A stretch of DNA of 64,000 bases from Escherichia coli (GCF_048403405.1 NZ_CP183129.1), one strand, 5' to 3'. Positions 5,022 through 44,462 are shown, counted from the first letter of the stretch. Notes: generated from the sequence alone by a model not told the origin. Program-made: numbers and translations.

Positions 5022-5199
5022 AAAAGTTTGATGCTCAAAGAATTAAACTTCGTAATGAATTACGTGTTCACTCTTGAGACTTGGTATTCATTTTTCGTCT
5101 TGCGACGTTAAGAATCCGTATCTTCGAGTGCCCACACAGATTGTCTGATAAATTTTTAAAGAGCAGTGCCGCTTCGCTTTTTCTCAGCGGCGCGGGGTG

Positions 5200-5375
5200 T
5201 GCATAATACGCCTTCCCGCTACAGAGTCAAGCATTTTTTTGCTTTTCTCTGTTGAGATTCTCAGGAGAACCCCGCTGACCCGGCGACGTGTTTGCCGTTG
5301 TTCCGTGTCAGTGGTGGCGCATTATAGGGAGTTATTCCGGCCTGACAAGAGGAAATTTAAAATAATTTTCTGACC
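5200..5375 (-). promoter_or_regulatory. rrnB P1 and P2 promoters with UP element
   Basis: On the minus strand: P1 -35 TTGTCA (5343-5348) and -10 TATAAT (5321-5326) preceded by the A/T-rich UP element AGAAAATTATTTTAAATTTCCT; P2 -35 TTGACT (5225-5230) and -10 TATTAT (5203-5208). Matches the remembered rrnB promoter sequence. Confidence 0.85.
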
Positions 5376-5393
5376 GCGCAACATTCAACCAAA

Positions 5394-6263
5394 TCAGTCT
5401 AAAACTGCCAGTTTTTCGAGCGTTTCGAAGCCGTAACGCTGTAAAACGGGCAATAATTGTTCAGCTTCTGGCGTCATTGCCATACAAAAGGCAATATTCG
5501 CATCGGCAGATTTTGCATCCGGGGCTTCATGCTCTAGCAACCAGGCCGTTCGGCGAGCAATCGCTGCGCCAGAATCCACCAGCCGGGTTCCCTCTGGCAG
5601 CACCTGTAACAGTTCTTCTTGTAGTAGAGGGAAATGGGTACACCCCAGTACAACGGTATCTGGCGGCTCTTTCATTCTTAACCACGGACGCAAGATACGT
5701 TTTAGCGCATCCAGAGAAACATCTTCGCCATGCAGCTTCGCTTCAGCCAACTCAACCATCTCTGCCGAGCCCAGCATTTCTATCTGGCATTCATTAGCGA
5801 AACGCGCGATCAGCTCATGAGTATAAGAACGTTTAACTGTTCCGCGGGTTGCCAGTAATCCGACAATGCCATTTGCCGTCAGACGTGCAGCAGGTTTAAT
5901 CGCCGGCACGACACCAACAACCGGGAAGTCGAACTTTTCGCGTAATGCAGGAAGTGAAACGGTACTGGCAGTGTTGCAAGCGACCACAGCCAGCGCAAGG
6001 GGATAACGTTTTTGCACTGCGGTGATAATTGCCACCACTCGCTCAACAATAAACGCTTCGCTTTTTTCGCCATACGGGAAAGCGACGTTATCGAAAGCAT
6101 AAATGTAATGGAGATCCGGTAAGAGATGCCGGATCTCGTCATAGACCGACAACCCACCGACGCCGGAGTCAAACACCAGCACGGTGGGACGTGGTTCAGA
6201 AGGTGTAGCTGCCAGACAAGGTGTATTCCCGTCCTGCAGTTTGGTAGCCATAGACTGTCTCAT
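5394..6263 (-). CDS. murI: glutamate racemase
   Basis: 289-aa ORF with the MurI sequence (…[15 protein letters not shown]…); sits immediately upstream of the rrn operon as in K-12. Confidence 0.9.
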
Positions 6264-37977: not shown

Positions 37978-38871
<894 letters not shown>

Positions 38872-38925
38872 TTACCTCATCAATCGCTTGTAGTTATATG
38901 TTGTGTTGTGAACATCTATCCATTT

Positions 38926-38949
38926 AGACGTCCAGATGTAAAGATGAAG
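38926..38949. promoter_or_regulatory. MetJ operator (tandem met boxes) upstream of metF
   Basis: Three tandem 8-bp repeats AGACGTCC AGATGTAA AGATGAAG resembling the AGACGTCT met-box consensus. Confidence 0.75.
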
Positions 38950-39249
38950 GAAAAGCCGAGGGGCGTCAACCGAAAAATGACCAATGATGGTGAGGAAAAA
39001 TCAGGGAAGTTGAAAAAAACTCATCTTAATTAGAGGCGATAAAAGATTTCTCTATAGCGCAATCCACCTCGCACGTTTTGACTGATATTCTGACAACACA
39101 GCGACACCTGGGCTTATTCGAAAAACAACGTCCTGCCACCGGATGGTGATGCTAAGGCATCTGATTCGGCCTGCGCCCTCGCGTAGGCCGAATACTGGAT
39201 CTGCAAAATCAACTGGTAACAAACAGATGAATCAACTCAATACGTACTT

Positions 39250-40803
39250 TTACTTGATATCTTTCACGCGCATACCGTTGATCTGTTCATCCGTGATGGT
39301 GTTACCCGCTTTGAAGTAATCAACCACGGCGTGATAAACGTAATAACCGCCCGTTGTGTTACGCGCTTTCCCTTCGGTAAAGGCGGTAAAACCATCTCCA
39401 CCATCAGCAAGGAAACTCTGAGTAGCAATGTGGTAAATCGTCGCATCTTCAATGGGTTTGCCATTCAGAGTCAGCGTGATTACCCGCTGACCAACCGGCT
39501 TACTGCTGTCGTACTTCATTTCCAGGCCTTTCGATACCTGTAAAACGCCATTACTTAAACTTGCGCCGTGTTCCATCAAACTGCGTAATTGTTTACCCGT
39601 GAGATCCATCGTCACCAGTTCGTTGGGAAACGGGAAGGTACTGATGACGCCGCCCATCGTAATCGCCCCTGCGGGGATCTCATTGCGAATGCCGCCAGAG
39701 TTGGTTAACGCCAATTGGGTGTTTTTACCCGCCGCTACCAGTAAAGCATCAGCCGCCAGGTTCCCGAGGGAAGCCGATTCACCATAGGCACGTTTTAATT
39801 CAACCGGCGATTTCGCGACCGTTTGTTGCACCACTTCATCAAGCTTTTTATTCCAGCCGTCGATCACCTGTTTTGTTTGCGGATCGGGCTTCCACTCGTC
39901 GGCGTAAATGGTTTTAAGCTCGAAGTTTTTCACCGTAAAATCATGCGGCTTCTCTTTGTAGTCGAGAACCAGTTTGCCCACATCAATCCCGCCGCTGTCA
40001 GTGGAGAGGATGAGCGTATTGCCGACTTTAATCGGTTCCGGCGTACCCACATGCGCATGTCCGGTGATCAAAATATCCAGCCCTTTCACCTGACTTGCCG
40101 TCTGAATATCTTTATCCAGCGCGCGACGCACATCTGTGCCTCCCATACTGGACTGGCGGGCCGGAACACCTTCATGGATCAGGGCGACGGTCAAATCAAC
40201 CTTGCCTTTAAGTTCATCGATATAACGTTGTAGCCATTTAATTTCATCACGCGCTTCAATCCCCACTCGCGTTGCCGCAGATACCGTGTCATTAAAGGCA
40301 AATACACCGTGCAAACCTATAACGCCTATTTTCACGCCGTCTTTTTCGATGATGGTATATGGCTTATCCCAGAATGATTTACTGCTGTTCTGATAAAAAA
40401 CATTGCCCTGCACAATAGGGAATTTTGCCTGACTCAACTGTAATAATGTGTTGTCCCAGCCGTGGTCAAATTCATGGTTGCCTATCGTGACGGCATCAAA
40501 CGGCATAGTATTCATAATATCGATAATAGCCTTACCTTTGGTCAGGCTGCTGATATATGGCCCGGTAAAATAATCACCCGCATCAAAAAACCATGTCGCT
40601 TTATTTTTTGCTTTTTCTTGCTTAACCAGCGTAGTGATATTTGCCCAGCCGCCAATATCCCGTTTACCATCAGCGATCCACGGCACTTTATAAGGCTCGA
40701 CATGCGCATGGAGGTCGTTGGTATAAATGATGGTGACATCTTTGGCGCAAGCCCAAAACGGCAGTGTTAATGCGATACCCGCAGCAAGTATTTTAATTTT
40801 CAT
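39250..40803 (-). CDS. predicted secreted bifunctional metallophosphatase/5'-nucleotidase (UshA/CpdB family); strain-specific accessory gene
   Basis: 517-aa ORF with a signal peptide ([20 protein letters not shown]) and calcineurin-type metallophosphatase motifs (NDLHAH, GDYFTG, GNHEFD, GHAH) followed by a 5'-nucleotidase C-terminal-like domain. K-12, as I recall it, has no gene between metL and metF. Confidence 0.8.
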
Positions 40804-40935
40804 AAACAGTCCCTTTCAGTGAGATAAAGGATTGCTACATTACGTTCTGAAAGAGTTATTTATGTGAGAGTAATCACATCCACAGGGGAGCGTTGCCGGA
40901 CAAAATCAACGACCATGTGAAATCGTTGGTGATAT

Positions 40936-42066
40936 ATGTCGACTCTGTTTACGATTAATGCCTGCAAGTCGTTTGGTTGCCGTAATTTAGGGCAGCCAAC
41001 ATCTAAAGATTATAGCTGGCCCGACTATCGGCTGGGTTATCCGGCATTGCACTGTCGGGCATGTGGCAGTTACCCGCCGTTGTTTGACGAGCAACAATTT
41101 CGTGACTGGTTGTCAGTTCACTTATCTACTTTTGCAACAGAGAAAGGCCATTTTTGCCCGGTATGTTATGGCACAAAGACGATTTGTTATGGCCACAATC
41201 CACAGGGGTCGCAACGCATTCAATGTCGTAACTGCAAAAAAGTCTGGACACCTAAACAATATCAGAAAGAAATAACGCCTCCTGAAATAATCGAAACGGT
41301 TGCTCTTCTGGTGCCATTTCAGGGAGCCAGCAATGGGCAGAAACTGTATGTTTTAATCAGTTTTGATGCTCTTCGCGGTAATATTCTTCATCTTTCTACT
41401 AATTACACGCAGCATCAGGCTGGAGAAAGTCTGCATTATCGATACAGAGGGAATGCAGAACCAGAGTTACACGAGAGTAATATTGTACAACGCGTTGATA
41501 TGCGCGAAGCACAATTTCTACGCCGCAGTCAGTTTGATGAAATTCAGTATGGCAGCGCAGCGCTCAAACGCAATGCTAAAGGTGTTATTCTGCGTCCGGT
41601 TATCACTGCACACGGGCATTTCAGAGTACTGAATATTTTATTCCCTACAGTAAAAACACATGTAATTTCACACGAGTGTTTTTTAAGAGGTGCGATTATT
41701 ACGGCCTGGGCAGAACTGTTTCGCCAACAGCAAGGTGAGATTTGGTTTATTGAAGAGGAAATAGCTGACTATACCGATAATACGCCCTGGCGTTTTCAGG
41801 GAAAAACTTATCACGGCTGGTGGAAAAATCAGTGGCAACTCTGGGTTCAGGGCAAAAATCGTAAAATGGTATGTGCATTAACGGGCGGAAATATCAGCAA
41901 AGCTGAAATGCTCTCTTTAGCAACCAGCAGACATTTTATCGACTGGCTACATAAACAAGCAGTATTTACTCACAGCGCCCCGCTTTCCGCAGGGCGCGTT
42001 ACGCAAATACTGCTTTCTCTGGCTCAGGATTACAACAACTGCGCCAGGCGGTTAATATCCGACTGA
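40936..42066 (+). CDS. hypothetical protein with two N-terminal CxxC zinc ribbons, the second resembling the IS1 InsA zinc ribbon; strain-specific accessory gene
   Basis: 376-aa ORF; motifs CKSFGC…HCRACG and CPVCYGTKTICYGHNPQGSQRIQCRNCKKVWT (compare the InsA copy in this window, CPRCQSVQVYRHGQNPKRHDRFRGRDCHRVFQ). The remaining ~270 aa match nothing I recognise. The 3' end overlaps the metL stop convergently by 37 bp. Confidence 0.55.
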   Translation: MSTLFTINACKSFGCRNLGQPTSKDYSWPDYRLGYPALHCRACGSYPPLFDEQQFRDWLSVHLSTFATEKGHFCPVCYGTKTICYGHNPQGSQRIQCRNCKKVWTPKQYQKEITPPEIIETVALLVPFQGASNGQKLYVLISFDALRGNILHLSTNYTQHQAGESLHYRYRGNAEPELHESNIVQRVDMREAQFLRRSQFDEIQYGSAALKRNAKGVILRPVITAHGHFRVLNILFPTVKTHVISHECFLRGAIITAWAELFRQQQGEIWFIEEEIADYTDNTPWRFQGKTYHGWWKNQWQLWVQGKNRKMVCALTGGNISKAEMLSLATSRHFIDWLHKQAVFTHSAPLSAGRVTQILLSLAQDYNNCARRLISD

Positions 42067-44462
42067 ATCGCCCCTGCGGTGACGTCGCGCCCCGCGCCAG
42101 GCCCACGGATCACCAGAGGGTTATCGCGATACCAGCGGCTTTCGATGGCAAAGACGTTATCGCACGGCAGCAGTGATGCCAGCGGATGGTCTTCACGCAC
42201 CGCTTCCACGCCCACACGCGCTTTGCCATTGGCATCGAAACGCGCCACGTAGCGCAGCACCAGCCCCATTTCGCGGGCCGCTTCCAGCCGTTGCACCATC
42301 TGCTCGTTAAGTTCATCGCCGTTTTCAAAGAAATGGTCGATGCTACCACCTTCGCAATGGGCAGGCACCAGCGATTCCACGCGCACCTGATCTGGTTCGA
42401 TGTCGTAACCCGCTTCACGCGCCAGAATCACCAGCTTGCGCATCACGTCTTTGCCGGAAAGGTCATCACGCGGATCAGGCTCGGTTAAGCCCTGCTGCCA
42501 CGCCTGATCCACCAGCTCGGTAAACGGCACGCTACCGTCGAATTGCAGGAACAGCCAGGAGAGCGTGCCGGAGAAGATCCCACTGATCGACAAAATAGTA
42601 TCGCCGCTGTCGATCAGATCGCGCACGGTATGGTTGATCGGCAAGCCCGCACCGACGGTGGCGTTGTACAGCCAGTGACGCCCGGTTTTTTCGAAGGCGT
42701 CGTGGATCTGGCGATATTTATTGCTGTCGCTGGCTCCCGCCAGTTTGTTGGCGCTGATGACGTGGAAACCGTGGCTGGCAAAATCGAGATACTGATCAGC
42801 AAGCTGCTGGCTGGCGGTAACGTCCAACACCACTAAATCATCATACGGATGGGCGCGCATCCACAGGAACAGCGACTCTTCATCCTGCTCGACCGCTTCA
42901 TCGTTGAAGAAGGCTAACGCGCGGCTGGCGTCCAGCCCGTCATAACTCAACAGGCTACGGCGGCTGTCCACCACGCCTGCCAGCACAAATTCAAAGCCGG
43001 TACGCGCCGAGAGCGTGCTCTGCTCACGGGCGAACAGTTCCAGCCAGCGGGAACCGATATTGCCCTTGCCGAACAATACCAGGCCGATGCGTTTTTCTGC
43101 GCGGAAGACGGACTGATGCAGCCCCTGAATCAGGCTTTCGGTCGGTCCGGTGCGCAGTACTGCCACCAGGCTGATGCCGTCATCCGACTGCCAGGTAAAT
43201 TCGACCGGCTGGCCTTTCAGTTGCTGCCAGAAGCGGTGGCAATGCAGCGGGTTACGGGTTACGCCCGCCCCAACCATCGCCACCAGCGCCAGCCCCTGAC
43301 GCAGGCGCAGTTCGCCAGGTAATCCCGCTTCGTCGAGGATTTTCAGCGCACTGTCGGCCACTTCTGAGGTGTAGCAAAATTGCAGCAACTGGCGATCGTT
43401 ATGTACGCCAACCGCCAGTGGGCGCACCTGAGCACGTTTCAGGATCTGGTCGATCTCTTTATGCGCCAGTTTGAAATCCTGGCTGGTGGGCACCTGAAAC
43501 TCAATCAAGCAGACATCATCGTGGCTGGTGACAATACGCGCACCAGTACCGGAGGCCAGCACGCGTTCAATGCGCGTGGAACCTTGATCCGGCGTGTAGC
43601 TACAGCGCAGCTGCAGGTCAATTTCGCTGCCAGAAACCGGCTGTAAAGTACGGGCGTGAAGAACGGGAGCCGCCAGACGCGCCAGTTCGCTGGCCTCATC
43701 CAGACGCAGCAACGGCAGCAGGCAGGCATCTTTCACTTTACGCGGGTCGGCACTGTATACCCCGGCGACGTCGCTCCAGATGGTGACGCGAGAAACACCC
43801 GCCAGCGCACCGATTTGTGTCGCGGAATAGTCGGAACCGTTACGCCCCAGCAGCACCGTTTCACCGGCGTTGTTACGGCTGATAAACCCGGTCACCACCA
43901 GACGTTTGCCCGGATGTTGCACCAGTAGCTGTTGCAGCAACGGGTAAGAAAGCCCTTCATCAACCTGCGGTTGCGCAGCGCGTTCAGCGCGTAAAAACTC
44001 GCGGGCATCCAGCCAGGCCGCTGGCAGCCCTTGTTGATTAAGTACCGCAGACATCAGGCGCGCCGACCACACTTCGCCGTGGCCCACCACTTCCGCATAC
44101 ACCGCGTCGTTAATACCGCTGTCGAGCAGCGCCGCCAGGCGTTCCAGATCGCTGACAAAAGCGCTAATGAGGCTATCGGCTTCTTCGGCGGGTAACAGGC
44201 CGCTAATCAGATCGCACTGATAGCGACGCAGCGTTTGTTGAACCTGATGCGCAGAGAGACGATCGGTCTGGCTTAGTTTCAACCAGTTAATCAACTGGTT
44301 AGTGGTGCTACCGGCGGCGGAAACCACCATCATATCGTCAGGCTGAGAGTACTCCGCCATAATGCCCGCGACACGCAAATAACACTTCACATCAGCCAGA
44401 CTACTGCCACCAAATTTATGCAGTTGACGACCTTTCGCCCCTGCCTGCGCAATCACACTCAT
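42030..44462 (-). CDS. metL: bifunctional aspartokinase II / homoserine dehydrogenase II
   Basis: 810-aa ORF; metB-metL operon arrangement. Confidence 0.9.
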   Translation of the reverse strand: MSVIAQAGAKGRQLHKFGGSSLADVKCYLRVAGIMAEYSQPDDMMVVSAAGSTTNQLINWLKLSQTDRLSAHQVQQTLRRYQCDLISGLLPAEEADSLISAFVSDLERLAALLDSGINDAVYAEVVGHGEVWSARLMSAVLNQQGLPAAWLDAREFLRAERAAQPQVDEGLSYPLLQQLLVQHPGKRLVVTGFISRNNAGETVLLGRNGSDYSATQIGALAGVSRVTIWSDVAGVYSADPRKVKDACLLPLLRLDEASELARLAAPVLHARTLQPVSGSEIDLQLRCSYTPDQGSTRIERVLASGTGARIVTSHDDVCLIEFQVPTSQDFKLAHKEIDQILKRAQVRPLAVGVHNDRQLLQFCYTSEVADSALKILDEAGLPGELRLRQGLALVAMVGAGVTRNPLHCHRFWQQLKGQPVEFTWQSDDGISLVAVLRTGPTESLIQGLHQSVFRAEKRIGLVLFGKGNIGSRWLELFAREQSTLSARTGFEFVLAGVVDSRRSLLSYDGLDASRALAFFNDEAVEQDEESLFLWMRAHPYDDLVVLDVTASQQLADQYLDFASHGFHVISANKLAGASDSNKYRQIHDAFEKTGRHWLYNATVGAGLPINHTVRDLIDSGDTILSISGIFSGTLSWLFLQFDGSVPFTELVDQAWQQGLTEPDPRDDLSGKDVMRKLVILAREAGYDIEPDQVRVESLVPAHCEGGSIDHFFENGDELNEQMVQRLEAAREMGLVLRYVARFDANGKARVGVEAVREDHPLASLLPCDNVFAIESRWYRDNPLVIRGPGAGRDVTAGAIQSDINRLAQLL

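Follow-up and report, generated by a model that had tools for sequence, protein, structure and literature searches.

A metL–metF accessory gene pair in Escherichia coli: a 5'-nucleotidase and a possible IS1-derived regulator of nucleotide scavenging

We analysed a stretch of 64,000 nucleotides (nt) of Escherichia coli DNA (GCF_048403405.1, NZ_CP183129.1; in the following called the window, with positions counted from its first letter), in which an accessory segment between metL and metF carries two divergent genes, one for a 5'-nucleotidase of 517 amino acids (aa) and one for a zinc-ribbon protein of 376 aa. By sequence comparison, this segment is the short allelic form of an old, polymorphic module for nucleotide and nucleoside scavenging in the Enterobacteriaceae. 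From the architecture, the predicted fold and the gene neighbours of the 376-aa protein, we infer that it is an exapted IS1-like, pathway-specific regulator of this probably CRP-controlled module, a reading to which we assign a probability of about one half. The islet and the nucleotidase are already on record, and both are ordinary. What is new, as far as we can tell from the literature searched, is the zinc-ribbon family, which is modelled in neither Pfam nor NCBIfam and whose transposase ancestry and linkage to nucleoside genes have not been described.

The zinc-ribbon protein and its family

The gene for the 376-aa protein (40936-42066, plus strand; six-frame list of open reading frames, ORFs) is annotated as 'hypothetical' or 'cytoplasmic protein'. 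A sequence-only reading of the window had described its product as a double zinc-ribbon protein without assignable function, and our searches bear this out, finding two four-cysteine clusters and no family above threshold. Pfam, PADLOC (E ≤ 0.1) and the sequences in the PDB returned nothing significant for it, and neither this protein nor the nucleotidase matched a PADLOC defence-system model at E ≤ 0.1. NCBIfam and PHROGs gave only sub-threshold matches of residues 74-123 to IS1/IS1595 zinc-binding models (NF050000/NF033558). Residues 74-105 match PF03811 weakly, and the score against the IS1 transposase model is 21.4 bits, compared with a cut-off of 100 bits. A PDB search with the family profile was set aside as uninformative because it returned only C2H2 zinc-finger proteins, through matches to cysteine-rich repeats.

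The first zinc ribbon (C10/C15/C40/C43; 40963..41064, plus strand) is a family-specific N-terminal module of the form NxCKxxxCxN…LGY…CxxCG and is 91-94% conserved among 47 family members, whose alignment underlies all conservation figures given here. The second (C74/C77/C97/C100; 41155..41235, plus strand) is of the IS1 InsA type, as indicated by the sub-cut-off matches to NF050000/NF033558 and by HHalign, which aligned the family profile with E. coli InsA over the zinc ribbon and the helix-turn-helix with a probability of 96.7% and an E-value of 3.7e-10. Among the eight zinc-ribbon cysteines, C74 is 77% conserved and the other seven are 91-100% conserved. Invariant in the family are C97, C100, R197 and H228; nearly so are C10, C15, C40, C43, C77, G86, R94, G148, N156, Y168, P221, H246, E247, W296, W300 and N367. 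Pfam recognises Zn_ribbon_InsA in 6-16 of the 47 members. In the distant members, the second zinc ribbon is followed by an additional stretch of about 45-60 residues; these proteins match positions 1-81/87 of the IS1 transposase model, covering zinc ribbon and helix-turn-helix, with E-values down to 1e-9.

The AlphaFold2 model of the 376-aa protein, built on the 47-sequence alignment, reached a pLDDT of 94.6 and a pTM of 0.93. It predicts a pair of small β-ribbons with a long helix between them (residues 52-70), a core with the order β1-β2-β3-α-β4-α-β5-α (residues 118-263), a four-stranded β unit (residues 268-314) and a C-terminal helical bundle. From this order of strands and helices, the core is predicted to be RNase H-like (residues ~118-314; 41287..41877, plus strand). 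Both the mixed β-sheet order and the structural similarity to members of the fold place it with the RNase H-like (DDE transposase/integrase) proteins. Together with the InsA-type N-terminus, such a core gives the architecture of an IS1 fusion transposase. Model and alignment put the C-terminal helical bundle at residues ~320-375 (41893..42063, plus strand), the last ~9 residues being an unconserved tail that overlaps metL.

The hallmarks of an active transposase are missing from this architecture. We found no DDE triad conserved across the family when positions were mapped by the order of secondary structures in the predicted model, and not by superposition: strand 1 contains T121, with Ser at position 123 in the consensus (Ala in the window), and the turn after strand 4 contains P221 (96%), these being the places expected for the two catalytic Asp residues. 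The sole always-acidic (D/E) column is 247. No terminal inverted repeats bracketing the gene or the islet were found. The gene occurs once per module with synteny kept, and its frame is intact, with a ratio of non-synonymous to synonymous divergence (dN/dS) of 0.10-0.16 between genera whose synonymous sites are saturated. Judged from these sequence features, the 376-aa protein is not a working transposase.

When 1.8 billion cluster representatives were searched exhaustively with the profile, only 137 proteins were recovered, about 45 of them full-length relatives of 400-570 aa with 19-40% identity. Close relatives (58-98% identity), annotated as 'cytoplasmic protein', come from Escherichia, Citrobacter, Enterobacter, Klebsiella, Kluyvera, Pluralibacter, Phytobacter, Kosakonia, Salmonella arizonae, Rahnella and other genera, and some relatives carry the database label 'IS1 family transposase'. 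A second set of 'putative cytoplasmic proteins' from Salmonella and E. coli (Q8Z9N7, G5PXM9 and A0A828N132 in AFDB) has the same fold at 24-26% identity and a length of 300-420 aa. In Enterobacter, Klebsiella, Silvania and Rahnella (L006, L009, L020, L022, L024, L040, L041, L044), the ATG of the zinc-ribbon gene is replaced by ATATTG; this implies a TTG start and suggests deliberately weak translation, as is usual for regulators.

The second line of evidence is the company that these genes keep. Loci were taken from a one-genome-per-species collection by a scan that samples mostly close relatives. A divergent nucleotidase gene lies ~132-145 bp upstream of the zinc-ribbon gene in 36 of 37 such loci, the exception being at a contig end, and many of them add one to three nucleotidase paralogues and a Tsx channel. 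The pair lies between metL and metF in Citrobacter as well; in Enterobacter hormaechei and a Klebsiella species, it is found at unrelated chromosomal sites with the same 132-bp spacing.

Among the distant homologues (19-30% identity), eight of nine clusters have nucleoside genes (nupC, nupG, deo, tsx or 5'-nucleotidase) as neighbours. These are NupC and a nucleoside phosphorylase (PNP); a 5'-nucleotidase with NupC nearby; DeoB with a phosphorylase and a NupG-type symporter; Tsx with a 5'-nucleotidase; a nucleoside phosphorylase; phosphorylase-DeoB-NupC in Motilimonas; and a complete NupC-DeoC-DeoB-phosphorylase-Tsx-DeoA operon. Nucleoside-utilisation genes make up well under 1% of a genome, so their linkage to this family across orders excludes hitch-hiking and argues for a functional tie to nucleoside and nucleotide scavenging. 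In one distant homologue (L056/L057, 6183-7000), an AT-rich spacer of 818 bp, unusually long for a bacterial control region, separates the gene from a divergent NupC-Deo-Tsx operon and contains several copies of AACGAT.

The divergent control region and the proposed regulator

The two genes of the window are separated by a divergent control region of 132 bp (40804..40935), which we compared in alignments of 5 and 34 loci. Its length is nearly constant, and four sequence blocks are kept across the 34 loci from ~30 species. This footprint agrees with the earlier suggestion that both genes share a control region.

The most conspicuous element is a perfect CRP consensus core, TGTGA-N6-TCACA (40863..40878, centre 40870.5; sequence and footprint), the sole such site in the window against 0.06 expected. 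Its centre is 67.5 bp from the ATG of the nucleotidase gene and 65.5 bp from that of the zinc-ribbon gene. The TCACA half-site is invariant in the 34 aligned loci, and the other half reads TGTGA in most of them and TGCGA or TGGGG in the rest. CRP-type sites are also present in the regulatory regions of distant homologues, where an unbiased count of 6-mers recovers mainly the CRP half-site.

On the nucleotidase side lies the block TTACGTTCTGAAAG (40840..40853, from the footprint), which encloses a TTCNGAA palindrome and pairs with TTTCAG at 40814-40819. Exact copies exist in 34 of 54 loci, at the equivalent position in all 34, and we regard the block as a candidate for either an operator of the nucleotidase gene or a core element of its promoter. 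In the long allelic form, described below, a CRP-like site in the second intergenic region is followed by TTTCTGAAC, which resembles TTACGTTCTGAAAG.

On the other side, CAAAAT (40901..40906, plus strand), within the block CAAAATCA (40901-40908), is the putative −10 hexamer of the zinc-ribbon gene. It is followed by the inverted repeat CAACGA-N10-TCGTTG (40907..40930), which includes the invariant block AAATCGTTGGT (40920-40930) and extends over the predicted start site and 5' leader. CRP bound at −41.5 would put the transcriptional start of the zinc-ribbon gene near 40912, inside this repeat, making the repeat a candidate autoregulatory operator in the position typical for one. A sigma-70 scan of the spacer gave no convincing promoter, so the promoter assignments follow from geometry only.

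Taken together, these elements suggest how an exapted IS1-type transposase might now serve the scavenging module as its transcription factor. The 376-aa protein would bind the conserved blocks of the spacer, either CAACGA-N10-TCGTTG over its own start site or TTACGTTCTGAAAG beside the nucleotidase promoter, and would use what was once the catalytic pocket (R197, H228, H246, E247) to sense a nucleoside or nucleotide. From the central site, cAMP-CRP would supply catabolite control to both divergent promoters, and the nucleotidase would dephosphorylate periplasmic nucleotides to nucleosides for uptake. The DNA binding, the identity of the operator, the ligand and the direction of control (activation or repression) are what we infer from the conserved sequences and the predicted structure.

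The sequence-only reading had offered two alternatives for the pair, nucleotide scavenging with its regulator or a domesticated mobile-element remnant. Both seem true at once, given the IS1-like architecture and fold and the nucleoside-gene neighbours; the regulatory half is a proposal, and the E. coli protein has no helix-turn-helix, unlike its distant relatives. With somewhat more reserve, the proposal may be extended to the family as a whole. Tentatively, its members, with two zinc ribbons, an InsA-type helix-turn-helix in some of them and an RNase H-like core, could be seen as IS1-derived, catalytically dead proteins that form an unrecognised class of nucleoside-responsive transcription factors in Gammaproteobacteria (Enterobacterales, Vibrionales, Alteromonadales). 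Acting with CRP, such factors would govern operons of the 5'-nucleotidase/Tsx, nupC/nupG and deo types, with the pocket of the former active site as ligand sensor.

Several observations weigh against a regulator. Its principal weakness is the loss of the helix-turn-helix: the E. coli/Enterobacteriaceae subfamily lacks this InsA-type element (a gap in the alignment; residues 98-117 are coil in the model), so that any DNA binding would fall to the zinc ribbons or the C-terminal helices. The core shows no detectable sequence similarity to IS1 InsB (HHalign probability 0.2%; local alignment z = 1.5), values that also leave a by-eye alignment of the two (QKLYVLISFDALRG with QRWLFYAYDSLRK; HVIS with HVIS) without statistical support and as a hint only. 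For one distant homologue (P0146), the 7 kb of upstream sequence seen contain no nucleoside gene, and its contig ends 1 kb downstream. As an operator common to E. coli and the distant homologues, we could offer only a post hoc lead: AACGA(T), chosen after looking at the sequences, occurs 16 times in the equivalent regions of the distant homologues against 7 expected (1 in 1,000 shuffles) and is absent from one locus. Searches of the literature for the locus and for domesticated IS1 regulators yielded no experiment or published data on the 376-aa protein, and the sole relevant publication was the one on GR 31 in BEN2908, discussed below. Finally, the invariant His, Glu and Arg residues could equally mark the active site of an enzyme.

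The missing helix-turn-helix thus lends real weight to two other roles, as an enzyme and as a protein partner. An enzyme would be a cytoplasmic nuclease, oligonucleotidase or nucleoside-modifying protein with a re-tooled RNase H-like site (H228, H246, E247, R197, D201), acting in the same salvage pathway without controlling it. The invariant or near-invariant His, Glu and Arg of the core would suit such a site, the RNase H-like fold is common to EndoV, NurA and PIWI nucleases, and the linkage to the pathway fits an enzyme as well as a regulator. However, the canonical acidic positions in strand 1 and after strand 4 are T/S and P, most family members keep the InsA-type zinc ribbon and helix-turn-helix as a DNA-binding module, and in nearly all cases the gene stands outside the operon as a transcription unit of its own, often divergent, whose operator-like spacer is conserved. 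Its dN/dS is, moreover, 3-7 times that of the neighbouring nucleotidase gene. We consider the enzyme unlikely, though a serious contender.

We judge it still less probable that the protein is an accessory factor that does not bind DNA, a zinc-dependent sensor or partner modulating CytR, DeoR, CRP or a transporter by protein-protein contact. Besides the lost helix-turn-helix, a large surface of conserved, Trp-rich character (W295, W296, W300) could serve for interaction, and the strong CRP site suggests that DNA binding is done by other factors. Yet the palindromic blocks conserved in the spacer besides the CRP site need a binding protein, the distant relatives retain the InsA-type module, and no partner gene is consistently co-located.

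Least plausible of all, and unlikely, is a decaying or still-mobile IS1-family transposase with the nucleotidase and Tsx genes as passenger cargo, associated with it through co-mobilisation. It could draw on the IS1-like N-terminus and the predicted transposase-like fold, on the database label of the relatives, on the occurrence of the module at different chromosomal sites across genera and in two copies in some genomes, and on the mosaic E. coli alleles described below. Against this stand the score of 21 against 100 bits, far under the cut-off of the IS1 model, with one copy per module; the fact that neither gene nor islet is bracketed by terminal inverted repeats or target duplications and that no DDE is conserved; and an intact frame at a dN/dS of ~0.1 across genera with saturated synonymous divergence (dS). 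Nor can hitch-hiking explain why relatives of 19-30% identity adjoin different nucleoside genes (nupC, nupG, deo) in unrelated contexts.

The nucleotidase, the locus and its allelic forms

The nucleotidase gene (39250-40803, minus strand; six-frame ORF list) encodes an exported two-domain enzyme of the 5'-nucleotidase family and belongs, on these comparisons, to a paralogue family separate from UshA. The five metallophosphoesterase motifs DxH, GD, GNHE, H and GHxH can be read directly from the sequence, and an orthologue with 91% identity matches PF00149 and PF02872. In NCBIfam, the protein matched 5'-nucleotidase, CpdB and SoxB families with E-values down to 4e-54 (others to 1e-44), all below the equivalog cut-offs. 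Its metal-binding motifs and C-terminal substrate-binding domain are those of the 5'-nucleotidase/UshA family; it is, however, not the UshA orthologue, scoring 152 bits against a cut-off of 600 bits with the equivalog model NF007109, and UshA chains in the PDB were matched over the N-terminal domain only (E 2e-23).

A signal peptide is predicted with cleavage after A20, the leader ending ACA|KD. PDB entries 3IVD/3IVE, named 'Nucleotidase', are ~98% identical over residues 19-517, and the start of the crystallised chain at residue 19 fits a cleaved leader. The earlier identification of a signal-peptide metallophosphatase/5'-nucleotidase is thus upheld by motifs, family matches and a leader absent from the crystallised chain. 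We take 3IVD/3IVE to be structural-genomics entries for CFT073 c4898 with bound uridine and cytidine. A literature search with these codes and with the CFT073-style names c4894-c4898 found no paper on the crystallised nucleotidase. No physiological substrates have been published for this otherwise ordinary member of a known enzyme family. The earlier description of the 376-aa protein as uncharacterised is upheld, since no published study of it was found; the nucleotidase is not unstudied, a nearly identical chain having been crystallised.

The genes for metF (37978-38868) and metL (42030-44462), both on the minus strand in the six-frame ORF list, enclose a spacer of 3,161 bp (38869-42029), compared with 348 bp in the K-12 derivative MC4100, where the sole gene call is a 44-aa 'hypothetical'. 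The earlier statement that only a few hundred bp separate metF and metL in K-12 was accordingly right, and alignments show the segment to be absent from K-12. Equally, the description of about 3.16 kb with two divergent genes 132 bp apart matches the ORF list in coordinates, strands and lengths. Alignment with the K-12 spacer defined the missing segment as 39019..42029, the short form of the metL–metF accessory locus. Its left edge falls at ~39018-39020 and its right edge exactly at the metL stop codon (42030), with ~3.0 kb in the window replacing ~190 bp of K-12 sequence. The 376-aa ORF converges on metL and shares its final 37 nt with the 3' end of that gene.

The segment contains the nucleotidase and zinc-ribbon genes only, without an integrase or tRNA gene, and has a moderately low G+C content of 0.43-0.52, compared with 0.58-0.61 for metL. 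The window is 100% identical to E. coli GN02461, in which RefSeq annotates exactly these two genes, as a 'bifunctional metallophosphatase/5'-nucleotidase' and a 'hypothetical protein'. Because both ORFs are under purifying selection (dN/dS 0.015-0.055 for the nucleotidase in addition to the values given above for the zinc-ribbon gene), they are real genes and not chance ORFs. A repeat search at the locus found no flanking direct repeats, insertion scars or mobility genes around the islet, and an Rfam scan of 38700-42300 returned nothing. The idea of an insertion or deletion thus stands as to the boundaries of the extra DNA, but no scars or mobility genes define the event.

Further elements lie at both edges of the segment. 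Directly after the metL stop codon, and still within the 3' coding part of the zinc-ribbon gene, there is an imperfect inverted repeat of 27 nt (41957-42015; inverted-repeat search), which probably acts as metL terminator and is common to the two convergent genes. Downstream of the nucleotidase gene, an inverted-repeat search and reading of the sequence revealed a G+C-rich hairpin with 13-nt arms (39164..39193), similar to repetitive extragenic palindromic (REP) elements and probably a transcript end or such an element. It is part of a REP-like element (39134-39193) between the nucleotidase stop codon and the metF upstream region, consisting of GCCACCGGATGGTGATGC… and the hairpin ATTCGGCCTGCGC/GCGTAGGCCGAAT. 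The first 9 nt of this element equal the start of the IS1 end sequence, without an inverted partner. A candidate IS1 terminal repeat at 39145-39166 (GGTGATGCT…CTGATT) was rejected, being part of the REP-like hairpin, without an inverted partner and at chance level in the pattern search. A 14-nt direct repeat, with one copy over the metF start codon (TGAAAAAAGCTCAT, 38855-38868) and the other at the left boundary of the extra DNA (TGAAAAAAACTCAT, 39011-39024), may be due to chance or may be a recombination scar.

To place the segment within the species, we surveyed 5,426 complete E. coli genomes. The zinc-ribbon gene is present in 1,842 of them (~34%), always at one place; of the 1,843 matches, two are plasmid-borne and not chromosomal. 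The allele type of the window (at least 90% nucleotide identity) occurs in ~1,175 genomes (~22%) and marks the short form. A diverged allele (60-90% identity) is found in ~667 genomes and accompanies a long form with five genes, which is present in 659-761 genomes (~12%), UTI89 included. Its order is metL, tsx-like, 5'-nucleotidase, 5'-nucleotidase, zinc-ribbon gene, 5'-nucleotidase, metF, so that it adds two nucleotidases and Tsx to the short form.

From metF through the nucleotidase gene and the spacer, the window is ~97% identical in nucleotide sequence to a long-form strain. Within the zinc-ribbon gene, identity in the 3' half is 61-79% (window 40900-42066 against 5100-6261 of the long-form locus L003), and dS between the two forms is 1.19 for this gene, compared with 0.16 for the nucleotidase gene. 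This change inside the gene points to an old recombination or allele-replacement breakpoint within it, and the mosaic identity shows the short form to be a recombinant, reduced derivative of a larger module and not a fresh insertion.

According to the passages retrieved from a 2026 paper, the long form corresponds to GR 31 (metL..metF) of extraintestinal pathogenic and avian pathogenic E. coli strains including BEN2908, for which nucleoside processing and uptake via a Tsx-like protein and three UshA-like ORFs were proposed; in these passages, the zinc-ribbon gene is not among the ORFs of the GR 31 table (PMC12928451). The window shares with GR 31 the chromosomal slot and the nucleotidase gene and differs in being the short form, without Tsx and two of the nucleotidases (PMC12928451). 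The suggestion that something undescribed might lie here consequently fails for the locus, which is common (~34% of E. coli, many Enterobacteriaceae) and published in its long form, but it holds for the uncharacterised 376-aa protein.

Some genomes have two paralogous modules, among them E. coli SCPM-O-B-8794 (L016, L023), Citrobacter sp. wls619 (L034, L043) and Escherichia sp. MOD1-EC7003 (L017, L042). One module is of the two-gene metL–metF type, and the other is larger, with up to four nucleotidase genes and Tsx, and lies elsewhere on the chromosome; the zinc-ribbon proteins of the two are ~70-75% identical. In Salmonella enterica subsp. arizonae (L046), the match to the zinc-ribbon gene does not begin before residue 126, in Kluyvera genomosp. 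3 (L045) the nucleotidase match is partial, and Salmonella fragments of 200-260 aa are numerous in AFDB. Some lineages appear to have a module in decay.

Implications and relation to known systems

The recruitment of DDE-type transposases as regulators of host genes is well known in eukaryotes, and to our knowledge very few bacterial examples exist. If our reading is true, the family would provide a clean bacterial case, in which an IS1-like protein, present in single copy and maintained by selection, is linked to one metabolic pathway in several orders. The scavenging of nucleotides and nucleosides by extraintestinal pathogenic E. coli, Klebsiella, Citrobacter, Enterobacter and Vibrio would gain a layer of control that has been missing, and many database entries that now read 'IS1 family transposase' or 'cytoplasmic protein' would be corrected. 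Should the 376-aa protein be an enzyme instead, it would represent a new RNase H-fold activity in nucleoside salvage. E. coli offers a natural polymorphism in presence and absence, with K-12 lacking the locus and the short and long forms occurring at the frequencies given above.

Among known systems, the nucleotidase is readily placed. It shares the two-domain architecture and metal-binding motifs of UshA/CD73-type 5'-nucleotidases, whereas its relationship to UshA is distant and it belongs to a set of three paralogues in long-form strains. The 376-aa protein resembles IS1 InsA/InsAB' in that its second zinc ribbon, and in distant members the helix-turn-helix too, aligns with InsA, itself a DNA-binding repressor, and it follows the IS1 fusion transposase in the order zinc ribbon, (helix-turn-helix), RNase H-like core. 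In contrast to IS1, the family has an additional, family-specific zinc ribbon at the N-terminus, and the window protein lacks the helix-turn-helix, similarity to InsB, a conserved DDE and inverted repeats, being single-copy, syntenic and under purifying selection.

In E. coli K-12, CytR and DeoR together with CRP control deo, udp, cdd, tsx, nupC and nupG. The module described here involves the same classes of target genes (Tsx, NupC/NupG, Deo enzymes, nucleotidases) and a consensus CRP site in the window spacer, and the logic would match, combining a pathway-specific factor with catabolite control. The 376-aa protein differs in its predicted RNase H-like fold and has no LacI- or DeoR-family domain; neither LacI-type nor DeoR-type domains were matched by Pfam or NCBIfam models in it or in the 47 family members.

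Close parallels are the eukaryotic FHY3/FAR1 and the bacterial, TnpB-derived TldR, which kept the DNA-binding module and the nuclease-fold core of a transposase and lost its catalytic residues. As in these cases, the gene has become fixed beside host genes, and a role in transcriptional control is proposed. Unlike them, the 376-aa family is of IS1-like and not of Mutator or TnpB ancestry, involves no guide RNA and has a putative regulatory role; judged by the literature searched, a link of such a protein with nucleoside catabolism is new.

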